A DNA stretch of 32,904 nucleotides from the IMG/VR virus record IMGVR_UViG_3300009702_000013, positions 1-32,904 of that record, one strand, 5' to 3'. Positions 726-20,461 of this stretch are shown in pieces (positions within the stretch are counted from its first letter, which is position 1; every line of letters starts with the position of its first letter). The stretch is from a virus. Under the pieces are notes generated by a model. It worked only from the letters and a program-made list of their open reading frames with translations, ran no database searches and was not told the origin of the DNA. A program made the translations under genes and the position numbers.

Positions 726-858
726 GGTATATCTGATAGTCGAGGTTCTATTCGTCTTCCTCGACATCTGCACCCTCTACTACGACCTCTTTTTCTTCTT
801 CCATAGGTTTAAGGTTAGCTGATAATATTTGCTCCCACTCGGAGCACATGCGAGCCAA

Positions 859-1017: not shown

Positions 1018-1021
1018 AATA

Positions 1022-1684: not shown

Positions 1685-1686
1685 GG

Positions 1687-1989: not shown

Positions 1990-1993
1990 AATA

Positions 1994-2122
1994 TTATTTT
2001 TTCTTTTTCTTATATCCGTTTGCATAGATAACACGTGCTTGGCGCTGCGCCCCTGCTTTGGTTTTGTATACCTTTCCGCTCTTACCCCATTTCCACCCAC
2101 CTTTTGTTTTATGTACCGGCAT
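1994..2122 (-). CDS. Lys/Gly-rich 42-aa protein of unknown function
   Basis: MPVHKTKGGWKWGKSGKVYKTKAGAQRQARVIYANGYKKKKK starts at an ATG 10 nt after a TGGTATAAT element. Its stop TAA is 4 nt before the holin ATG. It is not in the ORF track because it is under 60 aa. Confidence 0.45.
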   Translation of the reverse strand: MPVHKTKGGWKWGKSGKVYKTKAGAQRQARVIYANGYKKKKK

Positions 2123-2132
2123 ATGTTTATAT

Positions 2133-2143
2133 ATTATACCATA
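2133..2143 (-). promoter_or_regulatory. Extended -10 promoter element, TATGGTATAAT on the minus strand
   Basis: The plus strand reads ATTATACCATA at 2133..2143, immediately after the fibre gene stop. The same 11-mer recurs at 20462..20472 and 20590..20600. Confidence 0.5.
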
Positions 2144-4363
2144 TTAAGTGAATAAATCTCCTGTATCTTCTATTGGCAACTCAAACTCATCTCCCATATC
2201 AAGCCCTTTGAGTATCGTTGTGATACTGTCGAGCTTTCTATCTATCGTCATAGTTGTTTCCTCTGTCTGAAATCCTTGTTTCACGATTGAAAGTTTATAT
2301 GGATTATAGTCAATAACTGCAGACCACTCATAGTTATTTACCGCCCAAGCCTCTGGACTGTATTCTTTCACTCTCACATACGGAATAATGATATAGGTGC
2401 TGGTAGCGTCGGGGGTAACCTGCCAATCTGCGTGAACAGTTAGAGTGTTTGAAGTATTGCCTTTCATAATTATTCTTCTCTGTCCTGCTCCTGTGCCTGA
2501 AGTAATGTAAATCTCTTTGAACCACCACTGGCTTGTTGTCCACGCCTTTGATGTATCAGTAATGGTATTGGTTGTTGCAGATGTTGCTGTACCTGTTTCC
2601 TGCCCGATATATCCCTCTGCTGTGGTTGTGTAAGAGAATATCTGTGTTCCGTTTGTATCGGTAAGAGTTACCGTTGCTCCTGATAATGCTGTGCCGTCTT
2701 CTTTTATCACCTTGAGAAGCATTGAGTAGGTTTCAAACATTTTAGTGTTCTGGTAAGTAAGATTATGCAATTTCCAACGAACTTTATTTCTATCGGCAAA
2801 TACTCCCCAATTAGCGTCTACTTGGTCAAAAACAAAGCCATCTATATCATCTGTATTCCACGGATTGATTGGTGATGTGATAGCTGCTGAAAAATCATTG
2901 TTATGAGTGTAATCTCCCTTGTTTGTACTGTTCGGTCGTTGTGCAAAATTACCTCCAAAATTAACAATACCGTCATCAATCGCTCCTGGGGTTTCATTAT
3001 GTGCTCCTTGTACTTTTGCTCCAATAACCGAGTTGTTATCACCAGAGAAACTAGACTGTCTAAAGCCCTCAAGGTAAGCGTCAATCACTCCTTGATTACT
3101 ATCAGAACCAATACTCCCTCCCCAAAAGCCGTGGAAGTGGTCAGCAGTTCCTGTCGGCAAATGCTTGCAACGGATATGAGTATTGTAAAACTTCCCTTGA
3201 TTATATCCAATGAAACACCCCGACATATCCCAATCCTTGCCTTCAAATATAAAGTCTGTTCCTTTCTGCACCTTATCACCAGTATATACTTCTCCGATAG
3301 TAATCGGTGAACGGATATTCGGTAACCAATTCTTAAAGAACACCACTGTTTCTTGTTTCGTAATTAAATTGGTCGTTCCAGACGTGTATAAGTTACATTC
3401 AAAACCATAAGAACTATTTGCCATTTTGTGCACCACTCCCCACTGTCCCATTGTCAACGTGTAATCAAAAGAACCTGTGCCTGTTACTGCTGTTACTTGT
3501 GTTTGATTGAGTGTCTTAAAATACTTCGTGGCATAATTAGTGCCATTCCCTGTAATGACAATATCTTCTGTTTGAGCAACATCTGCTATGTCTGTGCCGA
3601 TTAGTCGCACCGTAGCATTTGTGAAACCTGTGTAATTGGCAATAGTAAGATAGAGGTCATTTCTTGCTCCACCTAAAACTTTATAATCAGCTGGTCTTAA
3701 ATAATCCTCTGTTGTAATAGGCGAAGCGTCTGTTGTAGTAATCCCTGTGCGTGTATCAAGGTCAACCGTTCCTGCTTTATCAGCATTGTATAAATCATCA
3801 AGTGTAAGTGCTGTTTCTGCGTTTGAGGAAATAGTCAAACCGATTGCCTTGGAATTGGTCGTGGAATGTAACCCTCCGTTGGTAATGCTTGATACTGAGG
3901 TAATTCTTGCTCTTACAAACCAATTATAATAAACTGCTGAGCTAAAACCGTTATGCCCTGCAGTAGCGTTTAAGTAATTCTCCCAACCATCTGGTATCTC
4001 CCACGTTACTCTCTTAACTCCTGTATTTTGAAAAGCATTTGTCTGGTCTTTCACATTTGGTAACGGAGCCCAGCTTGCACCATAATTATAATTTACTGAC
4101 CTATCAAAATAGCAATACTCCCATACAACGGTTAATCCTGTGGCAGTAATAGGCGTAGCAATGTCAAACTCTATGCCCTGATACTTACCATAGCTTCTTG
4201 TGTTCTGTGCAGAGAACATTAAGCAATCTCCTACAACTGCAGAAGTCGGGAAAAACTGATAAGAATTTACATTGGTACTTTTCAACAAAGTATATGTATC
4301 TGTTGCCAGCACATACTTAAAAACTGAGTACAAATCTTTTGGGTCCTTAAATGTGATTGCCAT
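2144..4363 (-). CDS. Tail fibre / tailspike-like receptor-binding protein (739 aa)
   Basis: It is the largest ORF in the structural arm, it is Thr/Ser/Gly/Asn-rich, and it sits just upstream of the lysis genes. The C-terminal part has a prealbumin/CarboxypepD_reg-like strand pattern (VIKEDGTALSGATVTLTDTNGTQIFSYTTTAEGYI ... YKLSIVKQGFQTEETTMTI). Confidence 0.65.
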   Translation of the reverse strand: MAITFKDPKDLYSVFKYVLATDTYTLLKSTNVNSYQFFPTSAVVGDCLMFSAQNTRSYGKYQGIEFDIATPITATGLTVVWEYCYFDRSVNYNYGASWAPLPNVKDQTNAFQNTGVKRVTWEIPDGWENYLNATAGHNGFSSAVYYNWFVRARITSVSSITNGGLHSTTNSKAIGLTISSNAETALTLDDLYNADKAGTVDLDTRTGITTTDASPITTEDYLRPADYKVLGGARNDLYLTIANYTGFTNATVRLIGTDIADVAQTEDIVITGNGTNYATKYFKTLNQTQVTAVTGTGSFDYTLTMGQWGVVHKMANSSYGFECNLYTSGTTNLITKQETVVFFKNWLPNIRSPITIGEVYTGDKVQKGTDFIFEGKDWDMSGCFIGYNQGKFYNTHIRCKHLPTGTADHFHGFWGGSIGSDSNQGVIDAYLEGFRQSSFSGDNNSVIGAKVQGAHNETPGAIDDGIVNFGGNFAQRPNSTNKGDYTHNNDFSAAITSPINPWNTDDIDGFVFDQVDANWGVFADRNKVRWKLHNLTYQNTKMFETYSMLLKVIKEDGTALSGATVTLTDTNGTQIFSYTTTAEGYIGQETGTATSATTNTITDTSKAWTTSQWWFKEIYITSGTGAGQRRIIMKGNTSNTLTVHADWQVTPDATSTYIIIPYVRVKEYSPEAWAVNNYEWSAVIDYNPYKLSIVKQGFQTEETTMTIDRKLDSITTILKGLDMGDEFELPIEDTGDLFT

Positions 4364-4637
4364 AAATCTCGTTTAATAATGCTTTCTTCTTTTTCAATTC
4401 CTCTTGCGTGTTATACAGTACAGGTTGCAAGTCGCTCCCGATATTATTTTGCACTGAATTTTGGATGTTCTGCGGTAGCCCTTGCGAGTCAGCAATAAGA
4501 GTGTCAATCTCTGTTTGAATACTCGCTACACTTGCCTCTAAATCAGCAATCTCTGCTTGGAGCACTGTAACGTCAACAACAGCAATCGGCTCATCATATG
4601 ATTGTGCGTATATATTATTGTTTATTTTTATCCACAT
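4347..4637 (-). CDS. Hypothetical coiled-coil protein (96 aa), possibly a fibre-associated or assembly protein
   Basis: The ORF overlaps both neighbours. A heptad-like segment is present (VTVLQAEIADLEASVASIQTEIDTLIADS). Confidence 0.55.
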   Translation of the reverse strand: MWIKINNNIYAQSYDEPIAVVDVTVLQAEIADLEASVASIQTEIDTLIADSQGLPQNIQNSVQNNIGSDLQPVLYNTQEELKKKKALLNEIYGNHI

Positions 4638-4827
4638 GTTTTTTGTGCTTAATCTTTTTCTTTTTCTTTTCTGCCTTTATTTTTTCAACCTTCTTTTCCT
4701 CATCGTCTATTTTCTTTTTCTGACGTATATCAAGCAACCCATCATGTTCGAGCAAATGCCGTGCTTGTTTTATATCAAATATATGCTTTTCGTCTGTATC
4801 AAGTTTTCGCATATTATCGTAATTCAT
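4615..4827 (-). CDS. Hypothetical Lys-rich protein (70 aa)
   Basis: The ORF fills what would otherwise be a 176-nt gap and overlaps both neighbours. Its low-complexity K-rich C-terminus lowers confidence. Confidence 0.45.
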   Translation of the reverse strand: MNYDNMRKLDTDEKHIFDIKQARHLLEHDGLLDIRQKKKIDDEEKKVEKIKAEKKKKKIKHKKHVDKNKQ

Positions 4828-6019
4828 AACCTAATAAATAAATATCTGCGGTCGCCATTCCTGCGTTGTCGGTGAATTTCAAATAAACCTTTTGCAATGA
4901 AGTGGTATCGATATAGGGATAATGAAGATTGACCATATAACTTCCATTCCTATTCTTGACCAATTTCAATGATGGGAATAACCCTAATTCGTCAAAGTTT
5001 GCGTCTGGATATATATCCAAATCCCAATCGGTTGAAGTGGTGGTAACTCGTATCCACTCAATCATTGCTTTATCAACCGCCCAATTCGTATCTGATAAAG
5101 TGAGATTGCCCTCTGCTTGCGTTAAAGCTTTTATGTAAATGAAGCGAGGGCTTCCTGCATCGTGCCAATTTGTACCGTCGCTGTATTCTAAAGCTACATT
5201 CGTTGAATTATAGCGAATACTGCCAGCACCATTTTTTGCGGTGTCAGAAGCGAGAACGAGTGTGCCTGTCATTGCATTATTACCTGCAACATCAAGATAA
5301 TCCGTGGCGGTTTCGTACGCCATTGTGCCGAGTCCAAGAGATGTTGCAAGATCCGTGTATGACTTTTGCCCAAGATTTTTATTTGAATCTGATGTAAGTA
5401 TATAGTTTGCCGAAGCTCCATTTATTGGCCGGCCGAGAACAAGACTTCCTCCACTCCCTGCTAACACATGGGATGACATACCAACGGATGCTAACTTCTT
5501 TTCAATATCCTCGATACCCTTGATCGCTTTTTTATCAAGACGATCATCATTCTGTAAAAGCTCGAGCGAGTTCCGGATTTCTTCCGGATCAAGGTCTTTG
5601 ATATGGCCATCAGCTCCGTCTTTTCCATCTTTCGGGAATGGGAAATCCACGCCGGCAACCGGAGTCTTGCCCGGAGCCCCATTCTCTCCTCGTTCGCCTC
5701 GCTCCCCCTTGGGGCCTCGTTCCCCCCTATCTCCTTTCTCTCCCTTGACTGGTTTAGGTATAAGCGGAATGATAAGAGCACGCAATTCTTCCTCGGTCGG
5801 GCTGTCACCCTTTAATTTCCCAGAAACAAGAGCATTATGGATTGCTTGCACATCCTTCTCATTAACCGCAAACCGCTCTGCTAACGCTTGTATCATCTGC
5901 CCATGCTCGTCTGTGGTGGTTTCCAGCTCTTGTATCGCCTTAAAAAACGCAGAGTTCGGGTCTGCCATAACATGGAGCAACTTTTTCAGCTTTTTGCGTT
6001 TTTCTTCGTTAGATGGCAT
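4814..6019 (-). CDS. Collagen-like repeat-containing tail fibre protein (401 aa)
   Basis: It has an uninterrupted G-X-Y run, GEKGDRGERGPKGERGERGENGAPG, followed by a Gly/Ser/Thr-rich beta-type C-terminal domain. Confidence 0.75.
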   Translation of the reverse strand: MPSNEEKRKKLKKLLHVMADPNSAFFKAIQELETTTDEHGQMIQALAERFAVNEKDVQAIHNALVSGKLKGDSPTEEELRALIIPLIPKPVKGEKGDRGERGPKGERGERGENGAPGKTPVAGVDFPFPKDGKDGADGHIKDLDPEEIRNSLELLQNDDRLDKKAIKGIEDIEKKLASVGMSSHVLAGSGGSLVLGRPINGASANYILTSDSNKNLGQKSYTDLATSLGLGTMAYETATDYLDVAGNNAMTGTLVLASDTAKNGAGSIRYNSTNVALEYSDGTNWHDAGSPRFIYIKALTQAEGNLTLSDTNWAVDKAMIEWIRVTTTSTDWDLDIYPDANFDELGLFPSLKLVKNRNGSYMVNLHYPYIDTTSLQKVYLKFTDNAGMATADIYLLGYELR

Positions 6020-6028
6020 AATGGATAT

Positions 6029-6139
6029 ATGAAATATCTCTTTTTAGGACTCACGATATTCGGCATATTAGCATTTATTTTTGCGTTCCCTTTATTCGTT
6101 ATCGCGGTTGTTTTGCTGTTAATATTACTTGGTGATTGA
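6029..6139 (+). CDS. Possible 36-aa hydrophobic peptide antisense to the late operon (very tentative)
   Basis: MKYLFLGLTIFGILAFIFAFPLFVIAVVLLLILLGD occupies the only sizeable gap (105 nt) in the late operon. It may be a by-product of T-rich sequence. Confidence 0.2.
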   Translation: MKYLFLGLTIFGILAFIFAFPLFVIAVVLLLILLGD

Positions 6140-7825
6140 TTTTGCTGATTTTTTTAACGCGTCCTCAAGTAATATACGCAACGCCTTCTGTTGGTATTTA
6201 ACATCTGGAGCACCAGCGTTGAGAACATTTTTTACAATATCGCTCACACCTGTTCTGATTCCACCGATAAAACCTGTTTTCGGTATTGATTCAGGATTTA
6301 ACTTCCTTAATTCCTCCGCAAAGTTGATCAAATCTTCTGCTTTTGCTCCCTTGTAACCTAAATCTCGCGCAAGTAGATCAGTTTGCTGTGCAACTTCTCG
6401 ATATAATGGCGAACTTTGTGCTTCACCCATAAGACGACGCAAGTTTACTTTTGCAAATTCTGCTGGATCGCTAGTATTAACAAGTTGAACATTCGGTGCT
6501 TTTAATAATGTTTTATCAATAGAATTTTGTGTTGTTCGTAATATACGATATTCATTGTTCAAACTCCTAATTTTCGGAGAAAGATTATCAAGCTGATTCC
6601 TAAATATACCTCTGAATACATCAAACGCATTCACATCTTTTCCATTTACTTTCAAGAATATATTATCCAATTTTTCAAACCTTGCTTCTCGCTGGAGCTG
6701 TGAAAAGACTCTGTCCATGCCATGAACCAATTTTGCATCTATTTTGCCACTTGCCTCAAGAGCTTTGCTATAAAGCTCCTGCAACCGAGCAAGCTGTTGG
6801 TTAGTAAGAATAGGCGATTGTAACACACCGTCTTTTACGATAATTCGATTTTGCGCTAATATATCTTCAACTTGTTTTATACTCGGTCGCATATCAACAG
6901 TAGAATCAGGAAGATTGTTGATTGCTTCTTCAATTTTCTTTCCGACTGCTTGTCGTTCTTTGTTTATTATATTATATTGATCATTAATAACACGACCTGC
7001 AACAATAGACGGCTGACGCTTTGGAGTAAGGCCGACGCGCGGTTTCTCTGCAATATCAACCATTTCTTTACTTGCTTTCAACGTAGCATTATCAGCTTTT
7101 TCAACATAAGTAATAAATCCATCATTGAGATTCGATTTAATAGCATTTTGAACTGATGGAGCTGACCTCTCGAGCCGTGCTGCCTTTTGTGCGGATTCTT
7201 CAATACCTGTTCGCACACGGCCGAAATAACGTGGAAATCGTTCAGCTACATCTTTTAATGATTGTTTCAACCCTTGTGACGCTACACTTCCTAATGCTTC
7301 TGAACCACGGCTAAATGTTTTAGCACCACGAGCTAATACACGTTCTCCTAATCCTACTCCTTTTTGAACACCCTTACGCGCCAAATTGAACCCTCCACCA
7401 ACACCTAATTCAGCACCAAACCCTATGACTTTTCCCAAAGATTGTTCAGCATTCGAGGATTTTAACATATCATCAATAGCAAGTGCTTGTTCACCTTTCA
7501 GTGCCGGTATCCCTGTCTGCTTCTGTATCTGTGCAAAGTTTCTTGTCGGGTCAATTCCTGCGAGGATTGCCTGTCCGCCTGTTTGCAATAATCGAGCTGT
7601 ACCTATCGAACTATCTAAAAACTCCTTCCCGGCTCCAATAGTAATATCCCCCAATGCTTGCGCTGCATTTTTCTGTCCTCCGGCATACACAAGACCAGAT
7701 TTATTCCCCTCATTCGGTTTTATCCCGAGCCAATAATTCATTAAAGAATCTTCTGCTTGTTGCCGAGTAAATCCATTCGCTTTTGCTGTTTGTAATATAC
7801 TTAATTCTTCTTTTGAAAATGCCAT
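6125..7825 (-). CDS. Large virion protein (566 aa), candidate internal/ejection protein
   Basis: The call rests on its position between the tail genes and the fibres, and on an Ala/Gly/Lys-rich helical composition. I recognised no catalytic motif. Confidence 0.5.
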   Translation of the reverse strand: MAFSKEELSILQTAKANGFTRQQAEDSLMNYWLGIKPNEGNKSGLVYAGGQKNAAQALGDITIGAGKEFLDSSIGTARLLQTGGQAILAGIDPTRNFAQIQKQTGIPALKGEQALAIDDMLKSSNAEQSLGKVIGFGAELGVGGGFNLARKGVQKGVGLGERVLARGAKTFSRGSEALGSVASQGLKQSLKDVAERFPRYFGRVRTGIEESAQKAARLERSAPSVQNAIKSNLNDGFITYVEKADNATLKASKEMVDIAEKPRVGLTPKRQPSIVAGRVINDQYNIINKERQAVGKKIEEAINNLPDSTVDMRPSIKQVEDILAQNRIIVKDGVLQSPILTNQQLARLQELYSKALEASGKIDAKLVHGMDRVFSQLQREARFEKLDNIFLKVNGKDVNAFDVFRGIFRNQLDNLSPKIRSLNNEYRILRTTQNSIDKTLLKAPNVQLVNTSDPAEFAKVNLRRLMGEAQSSPLYREVAQQTDLLARDLGYKGAKAEDLINFAEELRKLNPESIPKTGFIGGIRTGVSDIVKNVLNAGAPDVKYQQKALRILLEDALKKSAKSITK

Positions 7826-7829
7826 ATTT

Positions 7830-9449
7830 TTATATCTTAAATGGAGTTGAACTATTTGTTAATGGAGCATAAGCAGTCGGATCAAATTGATTTTGATTAT
7901 CAGTATTCCACAAATCATCCATAACAGCTACCTCATCATCCGTCATAACCCCAGTACGAGCTTTCTGCAATTTTATAGAATCATCATATTGTTTAATAAG
8001 TTTCTTTAACTGTGCTTTAAATGTTTCTTCTGATACTGCAAAATATATCGAACCATCATCGCGTTTCTTTTCCCACCCAGCAAGAGGACTCGCAGCACTA
8101 GCGAGAATTGATAACTCTGCATCTGACAAAGCACCAAATGTAGCACCACGGTTTTTAGCGTCAATTAATTTATCCAATGTCAATTGACTGAGCAAATTAT
8201 CCATAACACCAGTAAACTCGTTCACCGCGTCTTGATCAATCTGAAATGGTGTCCAACGAGCTATCCCATATGAACCAACAGCCCTCGTCATACCTTTATG
8301 ATTTAAAAGACCTTCGAGCGTTGATTTTGTTGCTTCTTCATTTTTGATAGATAACTTTGTTTGCTCTAATTCAGTTTCAGCTTTTTTCTGTTCAGTGATT
8401 TTATCCTTTTGGTAACTTTCATATTCCTTCCTCGTCATACCTCCAAATAAATTAAGATAATATTGTTGCTGTAATTCTGAATCAATTTGTATCTTCTTGA
8501 GTGTATTACCCAGCTTGAGACCAACCAAACTTTCTTTTGCAGCCGGGTCTTGCAAAAATCCAGAAGCATTCGCAATCGCTTCATTAGCATTTTTAGATTT
8601 CATTATCTCTTGAACGGTCGTTGAGTCAGCACCATATTGACTGGCTAAAAGCCCTATATTATAGATATTCTGTTTTTCTGCTTCGTCTTTTTTCAACACC
8701 CTCTCCCTCTCTTGTAGCGCAATCGCCAAAGCGTCGGAACGCTTTTTGTCGATGCGGTCGAGCGAGTCTTTGTTCATGTTATAAGCCTTTTGCAAATATT
8801 CAAGTTTTAATTTCTCCGCTCCGAACTCGGCATCAAGTGCAGATTGAATGTTTTGCTGTGCAAGCCCGATGTTTCCTTGTAGTGTTTGCCCGATAGCAGA
8901 AAGACTTAACGCATGTATCGCATTTTTTCGCATCCTGCTCGCTTCGATAGGGGCAACGCCACCTGCTGTAGCACCACGGCCGGTAAACTCCTGCTGTATC
9001 TGTAGAGGTATTGCCAACGCTTCTTTTTGCACCGCTTGCAATTGGTTGGTGATGTCTTGAAGCTGTTGTTTCTGCTCCGGCAAACCTGCTTGCTGTTCGA
9101 GCTGGGTCTTTTTCGCACCTTCTCCGCCTAATGTTTGCAACGAGTCCAAAATTTGTTTTTGCAAATCCGATTGCTGTGTTTCACCCTTCGTTTGGTCTTT
9201 TGTCAGAGAAGCGATATTCGCATTCACAGTGTTCGTGAAATCCTGTACTCCTGTTGGCACTTCCGGTAAGTTGATATTATTATTGGTGTTGGTTTGAGTG
9301 TCGGCAGTTATTGGAGTTGGGGATGATGGAAAATTCCCCGGATTGTCCACAACAGTACCATTATCATAAATTGTCTTCGAAGCTCCGGGAGAATATGCTT
9401 TTCCTATTGCAAGTTTTCGATTCTTTAATTGTTGTTCTGTAGGGTTCAT
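7830..9449 (-). CDS. Large virion protein (539 aa), Gln-rich coiled coil, candidate internal/ejection protein
   Basis: It lies in the structural operon and has long Q/L/E-rich heptad-like stretches. Its ATG follows the context TATAATATAAAAAT. Confidence 0.5.
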   Translation of the reverse strand: MNPTEQQLKNRKLAIGKAYSPGASKTIYDNGTVVDNPGNFPSSPTPITADTQTNTNNNINLPEVPTGVQDFTNTVNANIASLTKDQTKGETQQSDLQKQILDSLQTLGGEGAKKTQLEQQAGLPEQKQQLQDITNQLQAVQKEALAIPLQIQQEFTGRGATAGGVAPIEASRMRKNAIHALSLSAIGQTLQGNIGLAQQNIQSALDAEFGAEKLKLEYLQKAYNMNKDSLDRIDKKRSDALAIALQERERVLKKDEAEKQNIYNIGLLASQYGADSTTVQEIMKSKNANEAIANASGFLQDPAAKESLVGLKLGNTLKKIQIDSELQQQYYLNLFGGMTRKEYESYQKDKITEQKKAETELEQTKLSIKNEEATKSTLEGLLNHKGMTRAVGSYGIARWTPFQIDQDAVNEFTGVMDNLLSQLTLDKLIDAKNRGATFGALSDAELSILASAASPLAGWEKKRDDGSIYFAVSEETFKAQLKKLIKQYDDSIKLQKARTGVMTDDEVAVMDDLWNTDNQNQFDPTAYAPLTNSSTPFKI

Positions 9450-9469
9450 ATTTTTATATTATACCATGA

Positions 9470-9823
9470 TTAAGCGGTTATCCCTATCGTTGCTAACCGT
9501 GTACGCAAATCGTCAACAGCAGTTTTAAGATTATTTAGATTCGTTGTAAGAGAAGCAATGCTCACCGTATCGGAGCCGACAAAACTACCGATAGAAGGAC
9601 TTGTGATAGATGCCTGTTGTGCTGTGCCTGACGTTCCATAGAAACCAACAACAGAACTTGCAGAACCCCCGAGAATGAATGGATCAGCAAAGCTCCTACC
9701 TTCAGCTAGATATATATCTTTGTTAAAAATATATTTATCAGAGGTTTCAAACTGCTCCCACTTTCTTGTAAGATATGCTACTTTTTTCTCAAGCTCTTTT
9801 ATTTTTATATCTTTTGGATCCAT
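9470..9823 (-). CDS. Hypothetical virion-module protein (117 aa)
   Basis: It is an ORF in the structural operon with an N-terminal coiled coil and a Ser/Thr/Gly-rich centre. Confidence 0.55.
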   Translation of the reverse strand: MDPKDIKIKELEKKVAYLTRKWEQFETSDKYIFNKDIYLAEGRSFADPFILGGSASSVVGFYGTSGTAQQASITSPSIGSFVGSDTVSIASLTTNLNNLKTAVDDLRTRLATIGITA

Positions 9824-9824
9824 A

Positions 9825-9971
9825 TCAATATGGTTTTTTATCTATTTCTTCATACTTCCAATTAATACCGGTAATCACTACACCGTTTTTACTCTCAACA
9901 CGAAATTGCAATTCTTTGTACTCGGGGAACTGCGCTCCAGTACTTTCAATGTTTACTGATGAATGCGAAAG
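9825..9971 (-). other. A 48-codon in-frame continuation of the upstream 456-aa gene beyond its TAA, ending at TGA 9825..9827
   Basis: The same frame as 9972..11342 reads LSHSSVNIESTGAQFPEYKELQFRVESKNGVVITGINWKYEEIDKKPY. There is no in-frame ATG or GTG, and the first TTG is at codon 21. The stretch ends 1 nt before the next gene's ATG. Confidence 0.6.
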
Positions 9972-11342
9972 TTAACCACCAAACTCCTCATAATGCGAAA
10001 ATATCTGTGTCCAGCTCGTTTCTTCATCTTTACGATATTTTAATACAACAGTACCATTAACTGGCATTGGTTCCGTTGTTACCGTAACCCCGAGTAGTTT
10101 TTTCGTCTGTGAACTGTCGCCTCCATTCAATATCAAACTTTCATACACAGAAGTGTAACCATAAACACCATTATTATCAGTCCTATTCACCGAACCATCG
10201 TTAGAATGAGCGATCCACCACTCACCCGCAGCTTTATAGATACCTTGAAATGCATTAGAAGAAGTCGCATCCTCCTCAACAATCTCCAAAACTAACTTTC
10301 CATTGGCATCAACACTATATATACCAGTATTCGTATCCCCTCCGTTAATTATCTTTGCAGGGAAATAAAGTTTTGTTCCATCAGAAAAACTATTTGCTAC
10401 ATTCTCAAATAAATCAGATGAAGCATTATCAACTTGTATAACACGCAAATCTTCTGCAATTGGACCGGAAATACGTTTAATTATAACTTTGCGCTCGGTA
10501 AAAGCTAAAAAAATATTTATAAAATAATCCATCACAACAAGCAAATATCCACCTACCTCTGCCATATAAGCAACCCTCCCTTTCCCGAGATTTACCTTTT
10601 CACTTACCGTCGCAAGCGATCCGTTTCGATTCCATAAATAAACATAGCTATCGCCACTATAGGAATACAGGCTCCCCGAGGCACCTTTCGGCGAAGTCGC
10701 AATCGCAAGATAATTTCCTAACGCCGCGCCGGCAGTAATGATTGAATTATCAGGGAGTGTCAAAACATTACTTGACCATGTCGTATTATCAAGCGTATGT
10801 ACTTTGTTATCACTGAAAAAATATGCAATATCATCATTCGGATGATGTACCGGCTGTGCAACATCGGTATAAGCGATTGATTGATATGCGTCAGTGAATG
10901 TGGCGCCACTTGTCAGGTCGCCAAAGCGTTGTAACACCGTTCCACCAGCCCAATTGTAGAGATAATTCTTATAATGAAAAAACACGCGTTCATCTCTCCC
11001 GGTAATTGTTCCCTCACTACTTGATGGTACAGTCCAGTTTGTAGTATCAGGTGTTCCAGCGTTTATATCATAAAAATAAATTCTAGCTGCGGTCGAAGTT
11101 GCAGCTTTTCCGTAACCCCAGAGCTTAAATGTCGTCGAAGACGTTCCGGGAGCATATAAAAACTTTGTAATATCATATGACTTTGTTTCATCAGCTTCTG
11201 TTTTTGGATATGGTATCAGCTTATGTGGATACGTTGTATCAAAATGCTTTACCATCGCAGCAAAACGAAAGTCAGTACTCCGCAGATCATCTGCAATACC
11301 TCCATCAAATCTATTTATTTTTTGTTCGTAAATCTTTCCCAT
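9972..11342 (-). CDS. Virion/tail structural protein (456 aa up to the TAA, 505 codons if read through)
   Basis: It is a large beta-rich ORF in the tail region, and its stop TAA is at 9972..9974. See the extension feature above. Confidence 0.65.
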   Translation of the reverse strand: MGKIYEQKINRFDGGIADDLRSTDFRFAAMVKHFDTTYPHKLIPYPKTEADETKSYDITKFLYAPGTSSTTFKLWGYGKAATSTAARIYFYDINAGTPDTTNWTVPSSSEGTITGRDERVFFHYKNYLYNWAGGTVLQRFGDLTSGATFTDAYQSIAYTDVAQPVHHPNDDIAYFFSDNKVHTLDNTTWSSNVLTLPDNSIITAGAALGNYLAIATSPKGASGSLYSYSGDSYVYLWNRNGSLATVSEKVNLGKGRVAYMAEVGGYLLVVMDYFINIFLAFTERKVIIKRISGPIAEDLRVIQVDNASSDLFENVANSFSDGTKLYFPAKIINGGDTNTGIYSVDANGKLVLEIVEEDATSSNAFQGIYKAAGEWWIAHSNDGSVNRTDNNGVYGYTSVYESLILNGGDSSQTKKLLGVTVTTEPMPVNGTVVLKYRKDEETSWTQIFSHYEEFGG

Positions 11343-11344
11343 AA

Positions 11345-12613
11345 TTAGTTTTTATCCAAAAAAGTCCACGTTGTTACATTCTTCGCAAACTTCTCCCACC
11401 GTGCTTTGAACTTTGAGAGAACGTCGGTTATCCCGATTGATTCGCTCAAAGATATAACGGCATGACGTATGGAAGAAACAGAATCAGATGAGAATAAAGT
11501 ATCAGAAACTGAAATTCCTTTACCTTTCGCTGCATAAATATTATCCAAGAAAGATAATGTATCTGATACTGAAACGAGTTGTCCTTTAAAATGTTCAACA
11601 ACAAGTTTTGGATCAGTCGAAGTACCTATTTGATCTGCTGTATAAAACTGTATTCGATTTAAACCTGATGGTACTATGTTATTTAAATCGTTGCTATCTC
11701 TTATCCCAAATTTACTAATTCCTGCTTTTGTTATGTTAGAGAGTCCAGCAGAATTCAGAGAGAAATCTTGATAACTATCTACAGCAAAAGAAGCATAAGG
11801 TACTGAAGCAAAAGAAATTGAACCTACTTGATCATAATCTCCAACAACTAAACTTGTATTCGATGCTGGAGAAGAAGAAACAATATGTGTCGAAACAGAA
11901 TCTGCATTAGCTGTTGTATGAGTTGTACTTTCATATACTGAAAGTGTTGCAGAAAGTATTGTATATGTTGTAGAAATCGCAGAAGTATCAAATAACAAAA
12001 AACCTCTTTCGAGAAAATACCCAGTATTAGTTACTATATTTATAATTGTCCCAGAATCATCACTACCAGTAGCAATGGTATTATTTCTTGTATTTGTCCA
12101 GTTTGAATCATGATCATCTCTATACAAATGACCATCAACACTCGTACTTTCGGGATCTGCATCAGGATAAAAAGTAGAAATAGTATTTCCAACTTTACCT
12201 TTTAAAATATTCTTATCACTCTTTCCAACAAGAGATATTGTATGGCTTAAAGATTGCAATATTGCCTCTTTCGGGTCTTCTCGAAGTTTCCTATCAGGTT
12301 GTTTTTTCCCATCAAAATCTATTCCTCCTTTTCTCACGATTGCCCCATTCGGGTCATCAACTAAAACAGGTGGATTAAATATCCGAAACCGTTCAATATC
12401 AACAGAACCATCCTTGCCAAATCCAATCTGTTTTTCTTTTTCCCATGCCCGCGCAAATATCTCAATGCCACCAGCTATTTTTTTAACAGATTGCACTTCT
12501 ATTTTTATGCCGTTTTTAACGTGTTGTCCTTTAAAATCTATCTTTGTAATCTCTTGTACTTTCAAAGCAGCACGTTGTTTGGCATTTTTATTTTTAAGAA
12601 GTTGCTCAATCAT
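11345..12613 (-). CDS. Virion/tail structural protein (422 aa)
   Basis: The ORF is tightly packed with 2-nt gaps on both sides. Its central Ser/Thr-rich beta domain shows the pattern RGFLLFDTS...ILSATLSVY. Confidence 0.6.
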   Translation of the reverse strand: MIEQLLKNKNAKQRAALKVQEITKIDFKGQHVKNGIKIEVQSVKKIAGGIEIFARAWEKEKQIGFGKDGSVDIERFRIFNPPVLVDDPNGAIVRKGGIDFDGKKQPDRKLREDPKEAILQSLSHTISLVGKSDKNILKGKVGNTISTFYPDADPESTSVDGHLYRDDHDSNWTNTRNNTIATGSDDSGTIINIVTNTGYFLERGFLLFDTSAISTTYTILSATLSVYESTTHTTANADSVSTHIVSSSPASNTSLVVGDYDQVGSISFASVPYASFAVDSYQDFSLNSAGLSNITKAGISKFGIRDSNDLNNIVPSGLNRIQFYTADQIGTSTDPKLVVEHFKGQLVSVSDTLSFLDNIYAAKGKGISVSDTLFSSDSVSSIRHAVISLSESIGITDVLSKFKARWEKFAKNVTTWTFLDKN

Positions 12614-12615
12614 TT

Positions 12616-13080
12616 TTAACTAAATACAAATTTGTAAGTAGCATCAAGTATATCGGTACTATTCACCGTCTTGGTCGTCGTCAACTTTCGTCCGAGCATG
12701 GTACCAGCTGATGCCGCGTTGAACGCACCGATTTCCTCAATACTCTTGGTCGCGGTCGCAGTCCATGTGTGATCAAGCTGGAGTGTATCATTCGTCTGCG
12801 TTGTCGTTGATTGTGTAGCTGTTGCAGCCGCTCGAGCAAGTCCACTGTCAACAATCTCAGCTTGCAGTGCCGTGTGTGTCGCACTTTCTGCGGCGTTACT
12901 TGTACCTACCGCAAGATAAGTAAACGCCGTTTTGCTCCCGGTGTTTCCGACAAGTCCTGACACTTCTGCAAGAGCAGCATTAGTGATGGTATTTTGCATG
13001 AATCCGGTATCCCATTTAAGATTACCATCTTTGTCCCGGCACTGGAGCCGAGCGAATCCTTTGATTTTTATTGTTCTCAT
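12616..13080 (-). CDS. Virion structural protein (154 aa)
   Basis: The ORF lies in the structural operon, has an Ala/Thr-rich beta-type composition, and is tightly packed with its neighbours. Confidence 0.55.
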   Translation of the reverse strand: MRTIKIKGFARLQCRDKDGNLKWDTGFMQNTITNAALAEVSGLVGNTGSKTAFTYLAVGTSNAAESATHTALQAEIVDSGLARAAATATQSTTTQTNDTLQLDHTWTATATKSIEEIGAFNAASAGTMLGRKLTTTKTVNSTDILDATYKFVFS

Positions 13081-13083
13081 ATT

Positions 13084-13761
13084 TTAACGATTATTCTGAT
13101 AAAGTGGCGTTACTGTCGCTTTTTCATCTTCCGCCCTTCGACCATAATATTCTACCAACATAGTCTCATATCCTGCTATCTTCTTCTCATACAACGCGAC
13201 ACGGTCTTTTTTGTACTTCTGGCAATACGGAAGCGCGATCATGTACGGCAAGATCATATGCGCCGATAAGTAAAAGCCCGGAACGGTGCTATCAAATGAT
13301 GTAATCACTTGCAAACTCCGCTGAAAATAAGCTTTTAAACCACCTGTAAGATCGTAATTCGGCGTAGCATAGAGAAATATACTATCCCCGATCTTGTCAT
13401 ATTCTGACGGTATCCCTTGATTTGGTTTGTATTCTCCTGTCGCGATACTAATATCCTTCTCATCAATTGGTGTCAGCTTCGTTACATTCCCACTTGAATC
13501 CGTTACCTCCAATCGCTGTATCGTAAGAAAGGAATCATCAAACTGATATTGCTGTTGTCCGCTTTTAATATCAGTTGTACCAATCGGCAAGTTCGTAAAA
13601 TTAGTATCATCAAACTGCCATCTCCCATCTGCACCAATAGCAACACCGGCAACATGATCACCGGCATTATTGGCATAAATGAGCCGAGTTGCAGTCGGAA
13701 AGTCCGTTGTATTCGCGTCTGTCAGGTCGGTAACGATTGTGTTTACTTCATCCCAAGTCAT
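13084..13761 (-). CDS. Virion protein, possible head-tail adaptor/connector (225 aa)
   Basis: The call rests on its position shortly downstream of the capsid gene and on its size. The function is inferred from synteny only. Confidence 0.45.
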   Translation of the reverse strand: MTWDEVNTIVTDLTDANTTDFPTATRLIYANNAGDHVAGVAIGADGRWQFDDTNFTNLPIGTTDIKSGQQQYQFDDSFLTIQRLEVTDSSGNVTKLTPIDEKDISIATGEYKPNQGIPSEYDKIGDSIFLYATPNYDLTGGLKAYFQRSLQVITSFDSTVPGFYLSAHMILPYMIALPYCQKYKKDRVALYEKKIAGYETMLVEYYGRRAEDEKATVTPLYQNNR

Positions 13762-13775
13762 TTATTTTTATTTGA

Positions 13776-14045
13776 TTATGCCGCAGTGGTAACATTCGTC
13801 CACGTTGTTGCACCATCAGTGTTCACATACAACCGAGTGGATACAGAAGACCCATCAGTTCGCATATACAACGATCCTTTCGCTGCTGATATTGTCGGTA
13901 ACCCTGACCCGAAGAAAATACCAAAATTAGATGTTGAAGATACCAAGAAGCCAACTCCTGAAGTACCTCCTGCCGCTGGTGCTGTCGTTGCCCCAGCTGT
14001 TACTGCTCCTTGAAATGATGGATTATTTGAATTTGCTAATGCCAT
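13776..14045 (-). CDS. Small virion protein (89 aa), Gly/Ala/Thr/Ser-rich
   Basis: The ORF follows the capsid gene and has a C-terminal GSLYMRTDG....LYVNTDGATTW motif typical of small phage structural proteins. Confidence 0.5.
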   Translation of the reverse strand: MALANSNNPSFQGAVTAGATTAPAAGGTSGVGFLVSSTSNFGIFFGSGLPTISAAKGSLYMRTDGSSVSTRLYVNTDGATTWTNVTTAA

Positions 14046-14052
14046 ATTTTTA

Positions 14053-14319
14053 TTATTTATCTGTTAATTTTTCGTCTTTCTTTACAATAGGTTCCTCCGG
14101 TTTCTTCACTGGTTCATTAGAACCTTGCAATTTTGCAATCTTTCTCGCTAATTCTTCGTCTTTCTTTTTAAGAGCGTAAACTTCCGGGTGAAGTTTTTTT
14201 GCCAAAGCATAAATCTCTTTTAAAGATTCTACCGTGTTAACTTCATTTACTAACGGTGAATCTGTTTGAGGTTCCTTGACGTCGATTTTAACGTTGAGTG
14301 CATTTTTTGGTCTGCCCAT
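14053..14319 (-). CDS. Hypothetical charged helical protein (88 aa)
   Basis: It is an ORF in the structural operon with a K/E-rich composition. Confidence 0.5.
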   Translation of the reverse strand: MGRPKNALNVKIDVKEPQTDSPLVNEVNTVESLKEIYALAKKLHPEVYALKKKDEELARKIAKLQGSNEPVKKPEEPIVKKDEKLTDK

Positions 14320-14418
14320 AACATTTTTTACAAATTACCTTTTTGAGGGGTATATGGAGCAGAGAAATTGGTGCAAAAACTCTGCGCCATAGACCCCCAA
14401 AAAAGGGGATCTAATAAC

Positions 14419-15285
14419 TTAAGGAGTTACTGTGACATCAATAGTAAGAGCTGCGCGAGGAACCCATGCCTTAAATCCGACATAGCCCCATACAACAACT
14501 TCTTTTCCTGTCTTCCCGGTAACACCTTTCTCATCATACTGAACACCACGAGGTGCAGCATAAGTGGTAACGTTCTTGACACCTGCTACACGGTGACCAG
14601 AGTTCGTCCACGTCTTTGTACCAGAATCAGTAGTGGTAGTTGCGTCTATATACGTTCCGGCAGGAACAACATAGATGTCAACACCTGCTTGATTCCCGAC
14701 AAGACCATTCCGCAATGCAGAATCGGCGAAGTTGAAACCAGAAGTCATTTGGCTCTGGATAACTCCGACAAGGTCAGCATCCTCAAGAATGATATACAAA
14801 CCATTCATCTTGTCTGCGTATGCAGCAGTCTGCGAGAGAATGTTTGAGAGAATGACCGGCCAGTTTGCGGCTGTGGTAAAACCACCTGCTGGAGTCGAGT
14901 ACGTTCCTGTACCATTTTCGCAAAGCTCGTTGATGACCCACTTGTCAATCGCCGCCTTGACTGAATACGTCATCTCATCAATGCGAGAAGCGTAAAGATC
15001 AAACTGCGACAAAGCTGACTCAAAGTCATAAATATGCTCCGAAACGATGAACTCGTCCGCAACAGTAAGACCAGAGTCAGTCGTCGTGAAAGCAGCAGGG
15101 GTGTAGGTACCAGCAATGGCCTGAACAACAGTCGCCGGCGCTGAACCGTACGGATTGTCAATGTAGCGAACATCTGACGTATCTACTCTACAAACCGCCT
15201 CTGCTACGAGCATGTGTCGGAGCGAAGTATCGATTTGTGCGAGCGCATACTTTCGTCTGTTCGTGTATGTACTAATTGTATTCAT
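14419..15285 (-). CDS. Major capsid protein (288 aa)
   Basis: It lies immediately downstream of the scaffold-like gene and the portal. Its size and composition suit an HK97-fold coat protein. A hairpin-rich 99-nt gap follows it. Confidence 0.65.
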   Translation of the reverse strand: MNTISTYTNRRKYALAQIDTSLRHMLVAEAVCRVDTSDVRYIDNPYGSAPATVVQAIAGTYTPAAFTTTDSGLTVADEFIVSEHIYDFESALSQFDLYASRIDEMTYSVKAAIDKWVINELCENGTGTYSTPAGGFTTAANWPVILSNILSQTAAYADKMNGLYIILEDADLVGVIQSQMTSGFNFADSALRNGLVGNQAGVDIYVVPAGTYIDATTTTDSGTKTWTNSGHRVAGVKNVTTYAAPRGVQYDEKGVTGKTGKEVVVWGYVGFKAWVPRAALTIDVTVTP

Positions 15286-15340
15286 GTGAATAAAAAATTA
15301 ACGTGATAAATCACACCAGTTTTTTTATTCACCAATTTTT

Positions 15341-15952
15341 TTATTCCTTGATCCCAAGACGTGCTTTTGCAAGTTTCCGCATTCCCTCATCAGTGTCCGG
15401 CATTTCGCCTTTACTGCGAGCTTTATCCAAAAGACTTGCTCCGCTTGATTGCCTCTGACCGCCCGGTGTCTTTTTTACATTCGCCGCTTTTGCCGTTTCG
15501 CGTTCCTCGGCTAGCGAGGCCAACCGAGATTTCATAAATGACGTTTTAAGAGCTTCCGACACCGTCGTACCCTTGAGTTGAGCGTAGTCAATGACTTCCT
15601 GCACATCTTCCTCATCGACGTTGTTTTTCACAATTGCAAGCAAATCAAATTGCGATAATCCTTCAGGTTTTTTCTCATCTTCCTTCGGCTTCGTGCCCTT
15701 AATCTTGCGCAACTCTGCTTCTGCTTTCTCTGCTCGTATCTTTTGATTCTTGGTAACTTCGGTTAGTTTCTTCGCGGAATCAGCTTCTTCATTCAACCGT
15801 GCAATTTCCATGTAAATTTCTTCTTGCTTCCGCTCCGCTAACTTCTGTGTTTTCTCATCTTCATCAAGATCAACGAGTGAATTCTGAAAATCAACATCTT
15901 CCTCCAACTTTGATTCAATTGAGGCCTGAATCTCGGCCAATGTTTTTGCCAT
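15341..15952 (-). CDS. Scaffolding protein (203 aa)
   Basis: It is a highly charged E/K-rich predicted coiled coil between the portal and capsid genes. Confidence 0.6.
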   Translation of the reverse strand: MAKTLAEIQASIESKLEEDVDFQNSLVDLDEDEKTQKLAERKQEEIYMEIARLNEEADSAKKLTEVTKNQKIRAEKAEAELRKIKGTKPKEDEKKPEGLSQFDLLAIVKNNVDEEDVQEVIDYAQLKGTTVSEALKTSFMKSRLASLAEERETAKAANVKKTPGGQRQSSGASLLDKARSKGEMPDTDEGMRKLAKARLGIKE

Positions 15953-16019
15953 AGTTTTTTTTAGGACTTTTTTAGGTGAGCTACAACACCACTATTACTT
16001 ATAATTATACACTATTTCC

Positions 16020-16601
16020 TTACTTTGCGCTATCTTTTTTAATCCTTTCTTTCTTCTCCTCGGGCGTTTCTTGTTTGGAATATGCCAACACATTGAGCAA
16101 CACAAGCTGTTGTTCAATGTAATTGATAAATGTATTCCGTGCAATAATTCTATCAATCGGTGTTTGTTTATCTACACTGAAATCAACACTGAAATCAACA
16201 GGTTCTTTGCTAGGTTCATCAAGAAGCCCAAACGCTTGCTCTAACATCTGCAAAAGAATATACCGAGCAGCAAGTCTTTGTTTCTGCTGTTCCGGTGTCG
16301 CTTCGAGAATATTAACCGAACTCCACAAGTCAGAACTATTGGATGAGCCGATCGGATTCTCACGAGATAGCGACGGAATGATAACTTTGCGCAACACTCG
16401 TTTTACTTCAGGTTTCATACTTGTGACGACGCTTTTCTCCCATTCTGACAGTTTAAATCCGAAGAACAGATCACGAATGATAGTCAATGTAACCCATTCA
16501 TCACGAAATGCACCACGGATGATGTCTTTATCTTCTCTTGTGAGCCTGTCTTTCATTACCGGAGCTTCCGGATTCACTTTTTTAATTGTTTCGTTATCCA
16601 T
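16020..16601 (-). CDS. Hypothetical head-module protein (193 aa)
   Basis: Its ATG overlaps the portal stop (ATGGATAA). It contains a short internal DFSVDFSV duplication. Confidence 0.55.
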   Translation of the reverse strand: MDNETIKKVNPEAPVMKDRLTREDKDIIRGAFRDEWVTLTIIRDLFFGFKLSEWEKSVVTSMKPEVKRVLRKVIIPSLSRENPIGSSNSSDLWSSVNILEATPEQQKQRLAARYILLQMLEQAFGLLDEPSKEPVDFSVDFSVDKQTPIDRIIARNTFINYIEQQLVLLNVLAYSKQETPEEKKERIKKDSAK

Positions 16602-18396
16602 TTACTTTTTGTTTATTTTTAGCTAATAAAGGCGTTCTATTTTCTGCTGGTTGTTGCCCTTGCCCTTGTGGTTGCACTTGCACTTGCCCTTGCTGTTGTT
16701 GCGCTTGTGCAAGCTCTGGTGCTGTCAATGCGTTGTTCTTCACTACTTGCAAGAATGTTTGCAATGCTCCGAACAATTGTCTTTTGTCAGCACTTTCACC
16801 ATCCTCAATGACAACTTCCCATTCAAAATCTTTCAAAGACTCCGACCACGTCTTTTTTTCCATATCCGACGGCTTAAATGTACGCTTGTTGCCTTGAGCA
16901 ATAAGCGATTGTTGCACATTCGCCTGTGCAGTCGCCGGGTCAAATTGCGGTGGCACTTGCATATTGAACAATGCGTCAGCCGCCGCTTTATCAAACTGTT
17001 TTCTCGCTTCTTGTGGAACAAAAGAAGCATCCAATTTTTTGATATCGTCATCAGCCAATATCGCTGTGACTTCCTCGACAGTATCCATGTTCTTTTTCAA
17101 ATTCGGTAAAATAAACTTCCGCAACATCGTGTTCAAATACATCTTTTTATTCTCCACCATCATATCAAACAACGACAACGCTTGCTCTTGCAACGATTGT
17201 ACTTGAAGCCCTGACGTTCCTGATGGTTGCGTTGAACCTCGGAGAGCATCCGGTGTAGCCGATACGTCCTGACCACCAACACGCCATTGATTGAGATACG
17301 ATGTCAGCGCACCAATGTTTTGAACGGAATTATCTACTCTTGAAATCGGAGATTGTGTTTGGAATATGTCGCCTGTTTGCATCGCGGTTATAACATTCCT
17401 CCCTTGGAAACCCTGATCGGCTGTTTGGAAGATTATCATCGAAGCAAGGTCGAGATAATCTTTCATGTTCTTCATTGTATGATTAACCATCCACTGGTTA
17501 TCAAACATATACTCAACCGCTCCCTTACCTTTCGTTCTGCCGTCTTCTTCGATCAAGTGCGTGATCATGTATGGGTCTTGTTTTTCTTTCCCGACAAACA
17601 AAGTATAATCATCAAAACCACTATCGGACTTTACAAACGACACAACATGCATTTGTTGGAAAAAATTACTTTCATCACCTTCATATACGTCAATTCCTTT
17701 TCCGTTTTTATACATCTCCTCGGACAACTCCCCATGTACCTCATACAGTTCAATAAACTTTGATACATTGTCTTTCTGATTTCCACGACCTGTCTTGCGC
17801 GTGGTCACGTTCTCAATCAAATTCTGCACTGCTTTAACATCATACCCGGCATAATCTGGGTGACCTTTCGTCGCCATCGCTTTTAATTGTGCTGGTGTTT
17901 TGTAAAACTTTTCTATCCTCGGTAATGCGTAGAAGTCAATCGGGTCAACGATAAGTCTGTTCCACGGTACAACACTTGCAATAAGTTTTTTATCAACTTC
18001 GATAAACTTTACAACTGCTGACCCATGCCGTGCAAGTGTCAATCCCCATTGGTTTAGGAACAACCCGAAATTATTTCTTCGTATCCAATTTTGCAAGAGA
18101 GCATATGCAGCGTATGTTTGTATTGTTTTTTTCAATGATGGAGGCAACAACATTATCCTTGATGTATCCACATCTGTCGCCCTCCACCAGATATTGGCAG
18201 CCGCTACTGAGATATTAAAAAACGGTTTCTCTCTCCCTAAAGAATCCGTCAACCCTGATGTATGCACTGAATTAAGATACGCATCCTCGGTAGCAAGCGT
18301 GTCGTAAAGATTATGCGTAACGTGTTCGGATATTTGCACATCTTGTTGCATTGCTAACTCTCCATCGCGCATTGTTTCGAAAATTGATTTATCCAT
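16594..18396 (-). CDS. Portal protein (600 aa from MDKSIF...)
   Basis: The call rests on its size and its position directly after the large terminase; the terL TAA is separated from this ATG by 1 nt. The track ORF allows an earlier start at 18441. The C-terminal tail is Gln-rich (QAQQQQGQVQVQPQGQGQQ). Confidence 0.7.
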   Translation of the reverse strand: MDKSIFETMRDGELAMQQDVQISEHVTHNLYDTLATEDAYLNSVHTSGLTDSLGREKPFFNISVAAANIWWRATDVDTSRIMLLPPSLKKTIQTYAAYALLQNWIRRNNFGLFLNQWGLTLARHGSAVVKFIEVDKKLIASVVPWNRLIVDPIDFYALPRIEKFYKTPAQLKAMATKGHPDYAGYDVKAVQNLIENVTTRKTGRGNQKDNVSKFIELYEVHGELSEEMYKNGKGIDVYEGDESNFFQQMHVVSFVKSDSGFDDYTLFVGKEKQDPYMITHLIEEDGRTKGKGAVEYMFDNQWMVNHTMKNMKDYLDLASMIIFQTADQGFQGRNVITAMQTGDIFQTQSPISRVDNSVQNIGALTSYLNQWRVGGQDVSATPDALRGSTQPSGTSGLQVQSLQEQALSLFDMMVENKKMYLNTMLRKFILPNLKKNMDTVEEVTAILADDDIKKLDASFVPQEARKQFDKAAADALFNMQVPPQFDPATAQANVQQSLIAQGNKRTFKPSDMEKKTWSESLKDFEWEVVIEDGESADKRQLFGALQTFLQVVKNNALTAPELAQAQQQQGQVQVQPQGQGQQPAENRTPLLAKNKQKVNG

Positions 18397-18397
18397 T

Positions 18398-19810
18398 TTA
18401 TCTTGAGCTATCTTGTATCTTTTTAGACTCAGTGATGTCAAATTGTCTATTAAGTTCTTCCACTAACCGTGTGGTATCAAATGATTGTTTCGGGATCATA
18501 CTATTTTTTACATCAAAATACATTCTCATCAAAAAGGTATCAGATATATCCGGGCTTCTTCCGAGCAAATCTTTAACATCTTCTTTCGGAGTCGCAAACC
18601 TTTTTCCGTCACCTTTTGACGCATCTTGATAAAGTGAAAGTTCTTCGATAATCTGCTCTTGTATTATACCATCTTTCACTGTGCAAGCCAACAAGTGATT
18701 GTTTACTTTTTCAGCAAGAGTAAAAACACATTGTGAGCGTAAGTTTTTATAATCAGTCACGAGTGGAGCTTCTTTTGTATAGTGTACATTCGGAAGCAAG
18801 ACAGGGGAAGCGTCGGTACGAATCGCTTGATATGAACTTTTATATCCAACAATGCCATCAAGCATTGAAGATGACGCAACCCCGGCACCAACCCCTATAG
18901 CATCTACGGCAATCCCCGAGAACGGTATGCGCTCGGCTGCCGCTATCTCTCGGATCTTGTTGATAATATTTTCGGTATTCAATCGCTCGTACCTTTCGAT
19001 CCTGTAACACTCCAAGTCCTCCCAGAGCGCGAAAATGGTCTTGTCAGTGCCATCATCAGCGATGTCAACAGTCATGTACTTGTCGCCTTGTTTTGTAACC
19101 GTGTTAGTGAATATATCAAGCAGTGAGTCATACCGGAACAATGCTCCGATGTTATCCACATACTCGCCAAGTATTTCCTGACGATAGGTATTCGCGTCAA
19201 GTTCCTTTTGTGCTTTTGTCAGCTCGTCTGGTGGAATGGCCGGATTGTCCTGACTTGTGAAATGAAAGAACTCCCACTCTTTATCTTCGGCATACATTTT
19301 CTCCAACCTCCGCAAGTTCGGGTTTTCTTTTTTCGGCGTTCCTCCGAACCCGGCCGAACCTCCTGTTTCGATAAGCATCGGCCGAAAGATCTCTTGCCAT
19401 CCAATGAAAAAGTTTTTCATCGTGTCGGTTTCGTCAAACTCAATGTGGATGACGTTTGACATTCCACGATAGTTTTCTCGGTTCTCCCATCCACCAATGA
19501 AGATTGTTGTTTCACCGCCGAGCTCGTTTGGTATTTTTATTTCAAGCCGCGACTCATTGTAGTCACCTTGACCTTTGAGGCGTTGCTTAAACGATTCCCA
19601 TACGATTGTTCGGGCTTGTTTCTGTGTTGGTGCGATAAATATCACAGAACGATATTTAAACTCTCGAGCGAGTTTTACTTTTTTAGACGTGCCCTTAAAG
19701 AGCATCCGTTCTCGTTTGAGAATGGTCTTGCCACTTCTCCTGCCCCAGCGTTCAACAGTAAAGCGAGCTTTACTTCTTGCTGTCTTTTTTTGATGAGGAT
19801 ACAAAAGCAT
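18398..19810 (-). CDS. terL: Terminase large subunit (470 aa)
   Basis: It has a Walker A-like motif WGRRSGKT, a Walker B-like motif IHIEFDE, and C-terminal RNaseH-like nuclease acidic motifs (VDIADDGTDKT, AVDAIGVG). Confidence 0.85.
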   Translation of the reverse strand: MLLYPHQKKTARSKARFTVERWGRRSGKTILKRERMLFKGTSKKVKLAREFKYRSVIFIAPTQKQARTIVWESFKQRLKGQGDYNESRLEIKIPNELGGETTIFIGGWENRENYRGMSNVIHIEFDETDTMKNFFIGWQEIFRPMLIETGGSAGFGGTPKKENPNLRRLEKMYAEDKEWEFFHFTSQDNPAIPPDELTKAQKELDANTYRQEILGEYVDNIGALFRYDSLLDIFTNTVTKQGDKYMTVDIADDGTDKTIFALWEDLECYRIERYERLNTENIINKIREIAAAERIPFSGIAVDAIGVGAGVASSSMLDGIVGYKSSYQAIRTDASPVLLPNVHYTKEAPLVTDYKNLRSQCVFTLAEKVNNHLLACTVKDGIIQEQIIEELSLYQDASKGDGKRFATPKEDVKDLLGRSPDISDTFLMRMYFDVKNSMIPKQSFDTTRLVEELNRQFDITESKKIQDSSR

Positions 19811-20030: not shown

Positions 20031-20055
20031 ACCTAATTAAAATTGACACCTTTTT

Positions 20056-20454: not shown

Positions 20455-20461
20455 TACCGCA

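Follow-up and report, generated by a model that had tools for sequence, protein, structure and literature searches.

A premature TAA interrupts a predicted tail gene in the phage genome analysed here (the window; 32,904 nt, IMG/VR record IMGVR_UViG_3300009702_000013), and very probably this stop is a recent unselected nonsense substitution or a damage or assembly artefact, as opposed to a recoding signal. As a mechanism it is nothing new: we are dealing with an ordinary private change of TCA to TAA, or with an artefact. Comparison with two near-identical assemblies, hereafter the sister assemblies, and with distant relatives of the encoded protein supports this reading.

The interrupted open reading frame lies on the minus strand and runs for 456 codons from an ATG at 11342 to GGT GGT TAA (9974..9972). 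Past the TAA, the frame stays open for 48 codons (LSHSSVNIESTGAQFPEYKELQFRVESKNGVVITGINWKYEEIDKKPY) and ends at a TGA (9827..9825), 1 nt before the ATG of the next gene at 9823. An earlier sequence-only reading of this DNA had pointed out the in-frame stop and its coding continuation, and we confirmed the observation, including the coordinates and both peptides. If the TAA is obeyed, the 48 codons at 9825..9971 stay untranslated. The features of this region are as follows.

9825..11342, minus strand: predicted nozzle or tail-hub gene, 505 codons plus TGA, broken by one premature TAA at codon 457
9972..9974, minus strand: the premature TAA, a window-private substitution at 9973 (G>T on the plus strand; TCA Ser to TAA in the coding sense)
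9825..9971, minus strand: 48 codons plus TGA, predicted to encode the three beta-strands that end the C-terminal domain
9470..9823, minus strand: neighbouring late gene of 117 aa; in the sister contigs, too, it comes immediately after the 505-aa gene

Were the gene to end at 9972, the gap to its neighbour would measure 148 nt and be the largest in the late operon, whose other junctions, counted from ORF coordinates, are overlaps or gaps of 1–105 nt. An open frame of 48 codons arises by chance in ~5% of genes (our own estimate, at 41% G+C) and is unremarkable in itself. What lifts the extension beyond chance is its homology to a conserved family C-terminus. Searching with the joined 505-aa sequence returned 298 proteins—all unnamed metagenomic sequences, nearly all 480–520 aa in length and covering 98–100% of the query—and the extension aligned with the family's C-terminal consensus, NSISHSAxNIESxGAxLPxFKEIQFRIESTGGAVITGLKFKxE...Y. 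In the family alignment, the TAA falls within a short variable loop. Among 58 related loci taken from viral and metagenome contigs, in which relatives were at most 47% identical, 51 extend to the C-terminus, and in all 51 a single tblastn segment runs through the TAA site uninterrupted by a stop. The residue at the stop column in 52 distant homologues was S (18), A (12), E (7), T (5) or another amino acid, and never a stop. Relatives thus do not end at EEFGG—the outcome that the sequence-only reading had set against its own proposal—and the roughly 500-aa homologues, about 300 in number, span the stop.

Because homologues cross the TAA site, the 48 codons are the gene's true C-terminus and the 456-aa product is a truncation. 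That the 148 nt after the TAA might be intergenic or hold a separate gene, leaving the 456-aa protein as the native form, is a reading whose probability is close to nil. The gene caller of the source database did report the 456-aa product (P0001), but the 48 codons align to the conserved C-terminus of some 300 homologues, the full 505-aa gene is called in the sister contigs, and possible in-frame starts within the extension are limited to a TTG at codon 21 and a GTG at codon 32 (9878..9876), the latter yielding a peptide of 17 aa only. The TTG had been listed correctly in the sequence-only reading; its statement that the extension holds no GTG was wrong. Homologues extending across the stop already refute a spacer or small gene.

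For the sister protein of 505 aa, an AlphaFold2 model (39 homologues; pLDDT 89.5, pTM 0.89) predicts a beta-propeller to about residue 400, followed by a C-terminal beta-sandwich. Strands of the sandwich lie at residues 398–401, 413–423, 431–438 and 445–451 before the stop and at 459–462, 478–485 and 490–500 after it, the latter group with pLDDT values of about 90–96, such that in the model the stop removes three of the ~7 strands of this domain. The extension had been described, from its letters, as the final strands of a beta-rich domain, and this is where the model puts the last strands. The truncation would probably give a defective protein, as opposed to a useful short isoform.

The best match of this model in a Foldseek search of the PDB was the Pa223 tail (9nwi_Y; E 8e-13, TMq 0.58), and the other top matches comprised P22 gp10 (8eap_D), Sf6 gp8 (7sg7_S), T7 gp12, the PhiM1 nozzle and SU10. 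At the level of sequence, neither the protein nor the extension matched Pfam or PHROGs; a sequence-profile search of the PDB with the protein and searches of the INPHARED public phage genomes (megablast and tblastn) likewise returned no match, and the protein belongs to a distant, unnamed sequence family. Upstream are terminase and head-protein genes and two tail-module genes:

13084..13761: SU10_adaptor-like gene, just below the Pfam cut-offs
12616..13080: GP4 fiber gp80-like gene, just below the Pfam cut-offs

Since its propeller-based fold matches solved nozzles and it follows the adaptor gene within the tail module, downstream of the gp80-like, terminase and head genes, we assign the interrupted gene as the putative nozzle or tail-hub gene of a small podophage, with a P22 gp10 / T7 gp12-like fold. 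Relatives of this nozzle family in metagenome contigs were found mostly on JGI contigs named Ga0222xxx and Ga0075xxx.

Clustered at 90% identity, the 456-aa protein is joined by one other sequence, P0121, which is 505 aa long and identical except for Ser457. It is carried on a Logan contig of 21,079 bp (L059; assembly of SRR6056608), which aligns to positions 6..21084 of the window at 99.934% identity; the alignment is gapless and has 14 mismatches, the TCA/TAA difference among them. A contig in the ENA assembly ERZ27249683 (32,787 bp) covers the whole genome and likewise carries TCA at this site, leaving the gene uninterrupted. The two assemblies agree with each other at 20 of the 21 sites at which the window differs (the remaining site, 25393, is covered by the ENA contig alone), although they may stem from one run and hence perhaps represent one independent witness. 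The flanks of the stop are identical between the window and both TCA-bearing assemblies, with 100% identity across 9825..9971, and the family consensus at the stop agrees with the sister assemblies in having a sense codon. No other contig in the collection encodes the exact 456-aa protein of the window, nor the window's form of a 566-aa neighbour protein, which bears three private changes; judged by these two proteins, the window haplotype was absent from every other dataset searched. No paper on run SRR6056608 was found. On this comparison of assemblies, the TAA is private to the window.

A second in-frame TAA, noted at 31601 in the sequence-only reading, is equally real and interrupts another gene:

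31544..31888, plus strand: second interrupted gene, 114 codons, phrog_12436-like; TAA at 31601..31603 replaces GAA (Glu20)

This stop falls after codon 19 (MGTNYYTKTKKCSECGRKP*GIHLGKSS...), and the phrog_12436 match covers residues 1–78 across it (E 4.5e-7). Both sister assemblies have GAA (Glu) at 31601 and an uninterrupted 114-aa gene. When uninterrupted, the gene encodes a CxxC protein. The TAA at 31601 is of the same nature as that in the putative nozzle gene: each is a single-base difference from near-identical genomes with a sense codon (TCA>TAA at 9973, GAA>TAA at 31601).

Across the 32.8-kb genome, the window differs from the sister assemblies at 21 scattered sites, among them 355, 1748, 5235–5236, 5469, 6196, 9973, 15814, 17346 and 31601. 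A neutral expectation was simulated by scattering these base changes randomly over the sister sequence, and compares with the observed changes as follows.

Missense: 14 observed, 13.2 expected without selection
Nonsense: 2 observed, 1.3 expected without selection
Synonymous: 2 observed, 4.4 expected without selection
Non-coding: 3 observed, 2.0 expected without selection

Two or more nonsense changes arise with P = 0.38 in this simulation and two or fewer synonymous changes with P = 0.15; the numbers are small, and 2 of the 18 coding changes are synonymous. From sister to window, the spectrum comprises nine C>A, seven C>T, three T>C and two T>A changes, so that C>A and C>T account for 16 of 21; each of the two stops arose by C>A. 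Guanine oxidation and cytosine deamination classically yield C>A and C>T changes, and new mutations that selection has not acted on are commonly biased in the same way. As for the ancestry of the 19 differences other than the stops, distant homologues could be aligned at 4 of 13 missense sites, with more than one sequence at two portal-gene sites only, and are informative at these two sites alone. The private differences show no sign of purifying selection, small as the sample of 21 sites is; their neutral-looking pattern is that of substitutions never filtered by selection.

Individual private changes have visible consequences elsewhere in the genome. The adjacent double change at 5235–5236 converts GCA (Ala) to AAA (Lys) in a collagen-repeat tail-fibre-like gene. 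At 26909, a private A>G turns ATA (26907..26909) into ATG and lengthens the apparent ORF to 236 aa; since the sister gene measures 181–189 aa, the substitution has probably produced a spurious 236-aa call. The signature of the private changes as a whole resembles damage or unselected mutation.

Among the explanations offered in the sequence-only reading, programmed ochre readthrough was not supported, whereas a recent nonsense mutation and a base-call or assembly error both fit. Readthrough would make the TAA leaky, giving a 456-aa short and a 505-aa long isoform of the tail protein. In its favour, the frame remains open right up to the next gene, the extension plainly codes for protein, and a C follows the stop, which in E. 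coli constitutes a weaker termination context. Yet a ~99.9%-identical phage has a sense TCA between the same flanks, represented by two assemblies, and no homologue has a stop at this site; the stop is thus not conserved in related genomes. The sense-codon sister assemblies have identical flanking sequence, so the flanks do not form a context evolved for readthrough. Nor was a stimulatory RNA structure found: the 131 nt around and after the stop fold no better than shuffled sequences (z = +0.59). TAA is, moreover, the least leaky stop, since it is read by both RF1 and RF2, and it is the standard terminator in this genome, where 39 of 50 ORFs close with it, among them all late-operon genes from 1022..1684 to 20056..20454. 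A short isoform would be missing three of the ~7 strands of a folded domain, and the contig contains a second, unrelated private TAA along with neutral-looking private changes. Taken together, we give programmed readthrough hardly any credence.

Other forms of recoding were considered and rejected. A change of the genetic code is ruled out by the use of TAA as the main terminator together with the lack of a tRNA gene, ARAGORN having found none in the complete genome and hence no phage-encoded suppressor tRNA. Among the subset of genes scanned, two in-frame TAAs were found, and both are private; frequent in-frame use and avoidance of the codon as a terminator, as in reassignments of the code 15 or code 4 type, were not seen. 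A pair of frameshifts around the stop was rejected as well: the other two frames, read by eye, are unlike the family consensus, and the zero frame aligns best to the family, with a 2-residue insertion only. The stop is bracketed by two copies of a 9-nt direct repeat (TTTCGCATT), 30 nt apart at 10000..9992 and 9970..9962 on the minus strand, which encode F-S-H and L-S-H. Bypassing of the T4 gene 60 type via this repeat was discarded, given that the same repeats occur in the sister assemblies with a sense codon, and that a hop would delete 10 residues that homologues mostly retain. The bracketing of the stop is most likely coincidental.

A further reading would take the contig as a faithful copy of a replicating lineage in which both TAAs are real and tolerated, be it via a host ochre-suppressor tRNA, high TAA readthrough or complementation, with the nozzle protein supplied in trans by intact genomes that infect the same cell. 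Both stops within this one complete genome are ochre, none TAG or TGA, and both genes are otherwise intact, with undamaged downstream parts. However, two nonsense changes among 21 unselected substitutions are expected by chance at the frequency given above, and in an A+T-rich genome C>A changes naturally make TAA from TCA and GAA. An efficient ochre suppressor would extend most of the proteins, given the 39 of 50 genes that end in TAA; the phage has no tRNA of its own, and the haplotype was found in no other dataset. We regard such a lineage as highly unlikely; if it existed, it would amount to a natural 'conditional-lethal' phage.

The preferred reading—a recent unselected substitution or an artefact—involves one base change, TCA (Ser457) to TAA, existing only in this assembly; it falls in a variable loop of the predicted nozzle's C-terminal beta-sandwich and cuts the last 48 residues from the protein. 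The private changes look unfiltered by selection, which leaves two possibilities: the window may represent a genome variant of very recent origin, laden with mutations and probably defective, or DNA-damage or amplification errors, dominated by C>A and C>T, may have been fixed into the consensus. Each has a weakness. The artefact requires an implied consensus error rate of ~6e-4 per base, which is high for a normally covered Illumina assembly, while selection should rapidly remove a replicating lineage whose essential tail gene contains a stop. We consider the two about equally likely. The truncation would leave the protein without function, and the stop would not be programmed. In-frame stops that arise from sequencing error or pseudogenisation form a category in the literature (PMC7918605).

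The window holds a complete phage genome of about 32.78 kb (G+C 40.9%), with late genes on the minus strand. Its first and last 123 nt (1..123 and 32782..32904) form an exact direct repeat, which shows the genome to be complete, circularly closed or terminally redundant. The terminal junction lies inside a pentapeptide-repeat gene with 15-nt DNA repeats, and the ENA assembly is one 15-nt unit shorter here (32770..32784). At the boundary between the divergent late (minus) and early (plus) gene blocks, positions 20992..21138 contain tandem arrays, CAACACCGAC x5.7 followed by CAATACCAT x10, in which the ENA assembly is 36 nt (four 9-nt units) shorter. These arrays could be iteron- or origin-like, a regulatory region, or part of a repeat-containing ORF (20604..21173).

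The case is a warning: where intact coding sequence continues past an in-frame stop, the gene looks recoded, until a near-identical genome reveals a private point change. The contig itself should be flagged for an unselected C>A and C>T load of about 6 per 10 kb, two stops included. Gene calls and proteins derived from it are affected, and the 456-aa database entry represents a truncated form of the putative nozzle protein. At the same time, an unnamed metagenomic family of ~300 members, with no Pfam or PHROG match, becomes assignable by fold to the podophage nozzle or tail-hub proteins.

Podophage nozzles with solved structures (P22 gp10, Sf6 gp8, T7 gp12, Pa223) share the propeller-plus-sandwich fold predicted here (E 8e-13 to 1e-10, TMq up to 0.58), and P22-like nozzles are of comparable size, at about 470–510 aa; in these phages, too, the gene follows an SU10-type adaptor gene in the tail module. 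Sequence identity to the solved proteins is only about 8–11%. With respect to the stop, the closest parallel is to nonsense (ochre) mutants of phage structural genes, in which one base change likewise creates a TAA in a conserved gene whose downstream frame has not decayed. Laboratory ochre mutants were selected, however, whereas the window is a metagenome assembly with no known suppressor host. The read-through coat protein A1 of Qbeta, which arises at a leaky, conserved UGA and whose extension is an added domain, resembles the present gene in that coding sequence for a virion protein continues in frame past a stop. Here, in contrast, the stop is a TAA that is private to one assembly and interrupts a single domain that is continuous in all relatives. 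Phages with reassigned stop codons (TAG to Gln, code 15; TGA to Trp, code 4; PMC9523058) likewise show in-frame stops within late or structural genes, in phage genomes from metagenomes. They carry many in-frame copies of a codon that is avoided as a terminator, often together with a suppressor tRNA, whereas the genome described here has two in-frame TAAs, both private, ends 39 of its 50 ORFs with that same codon and encodes no tRNA.
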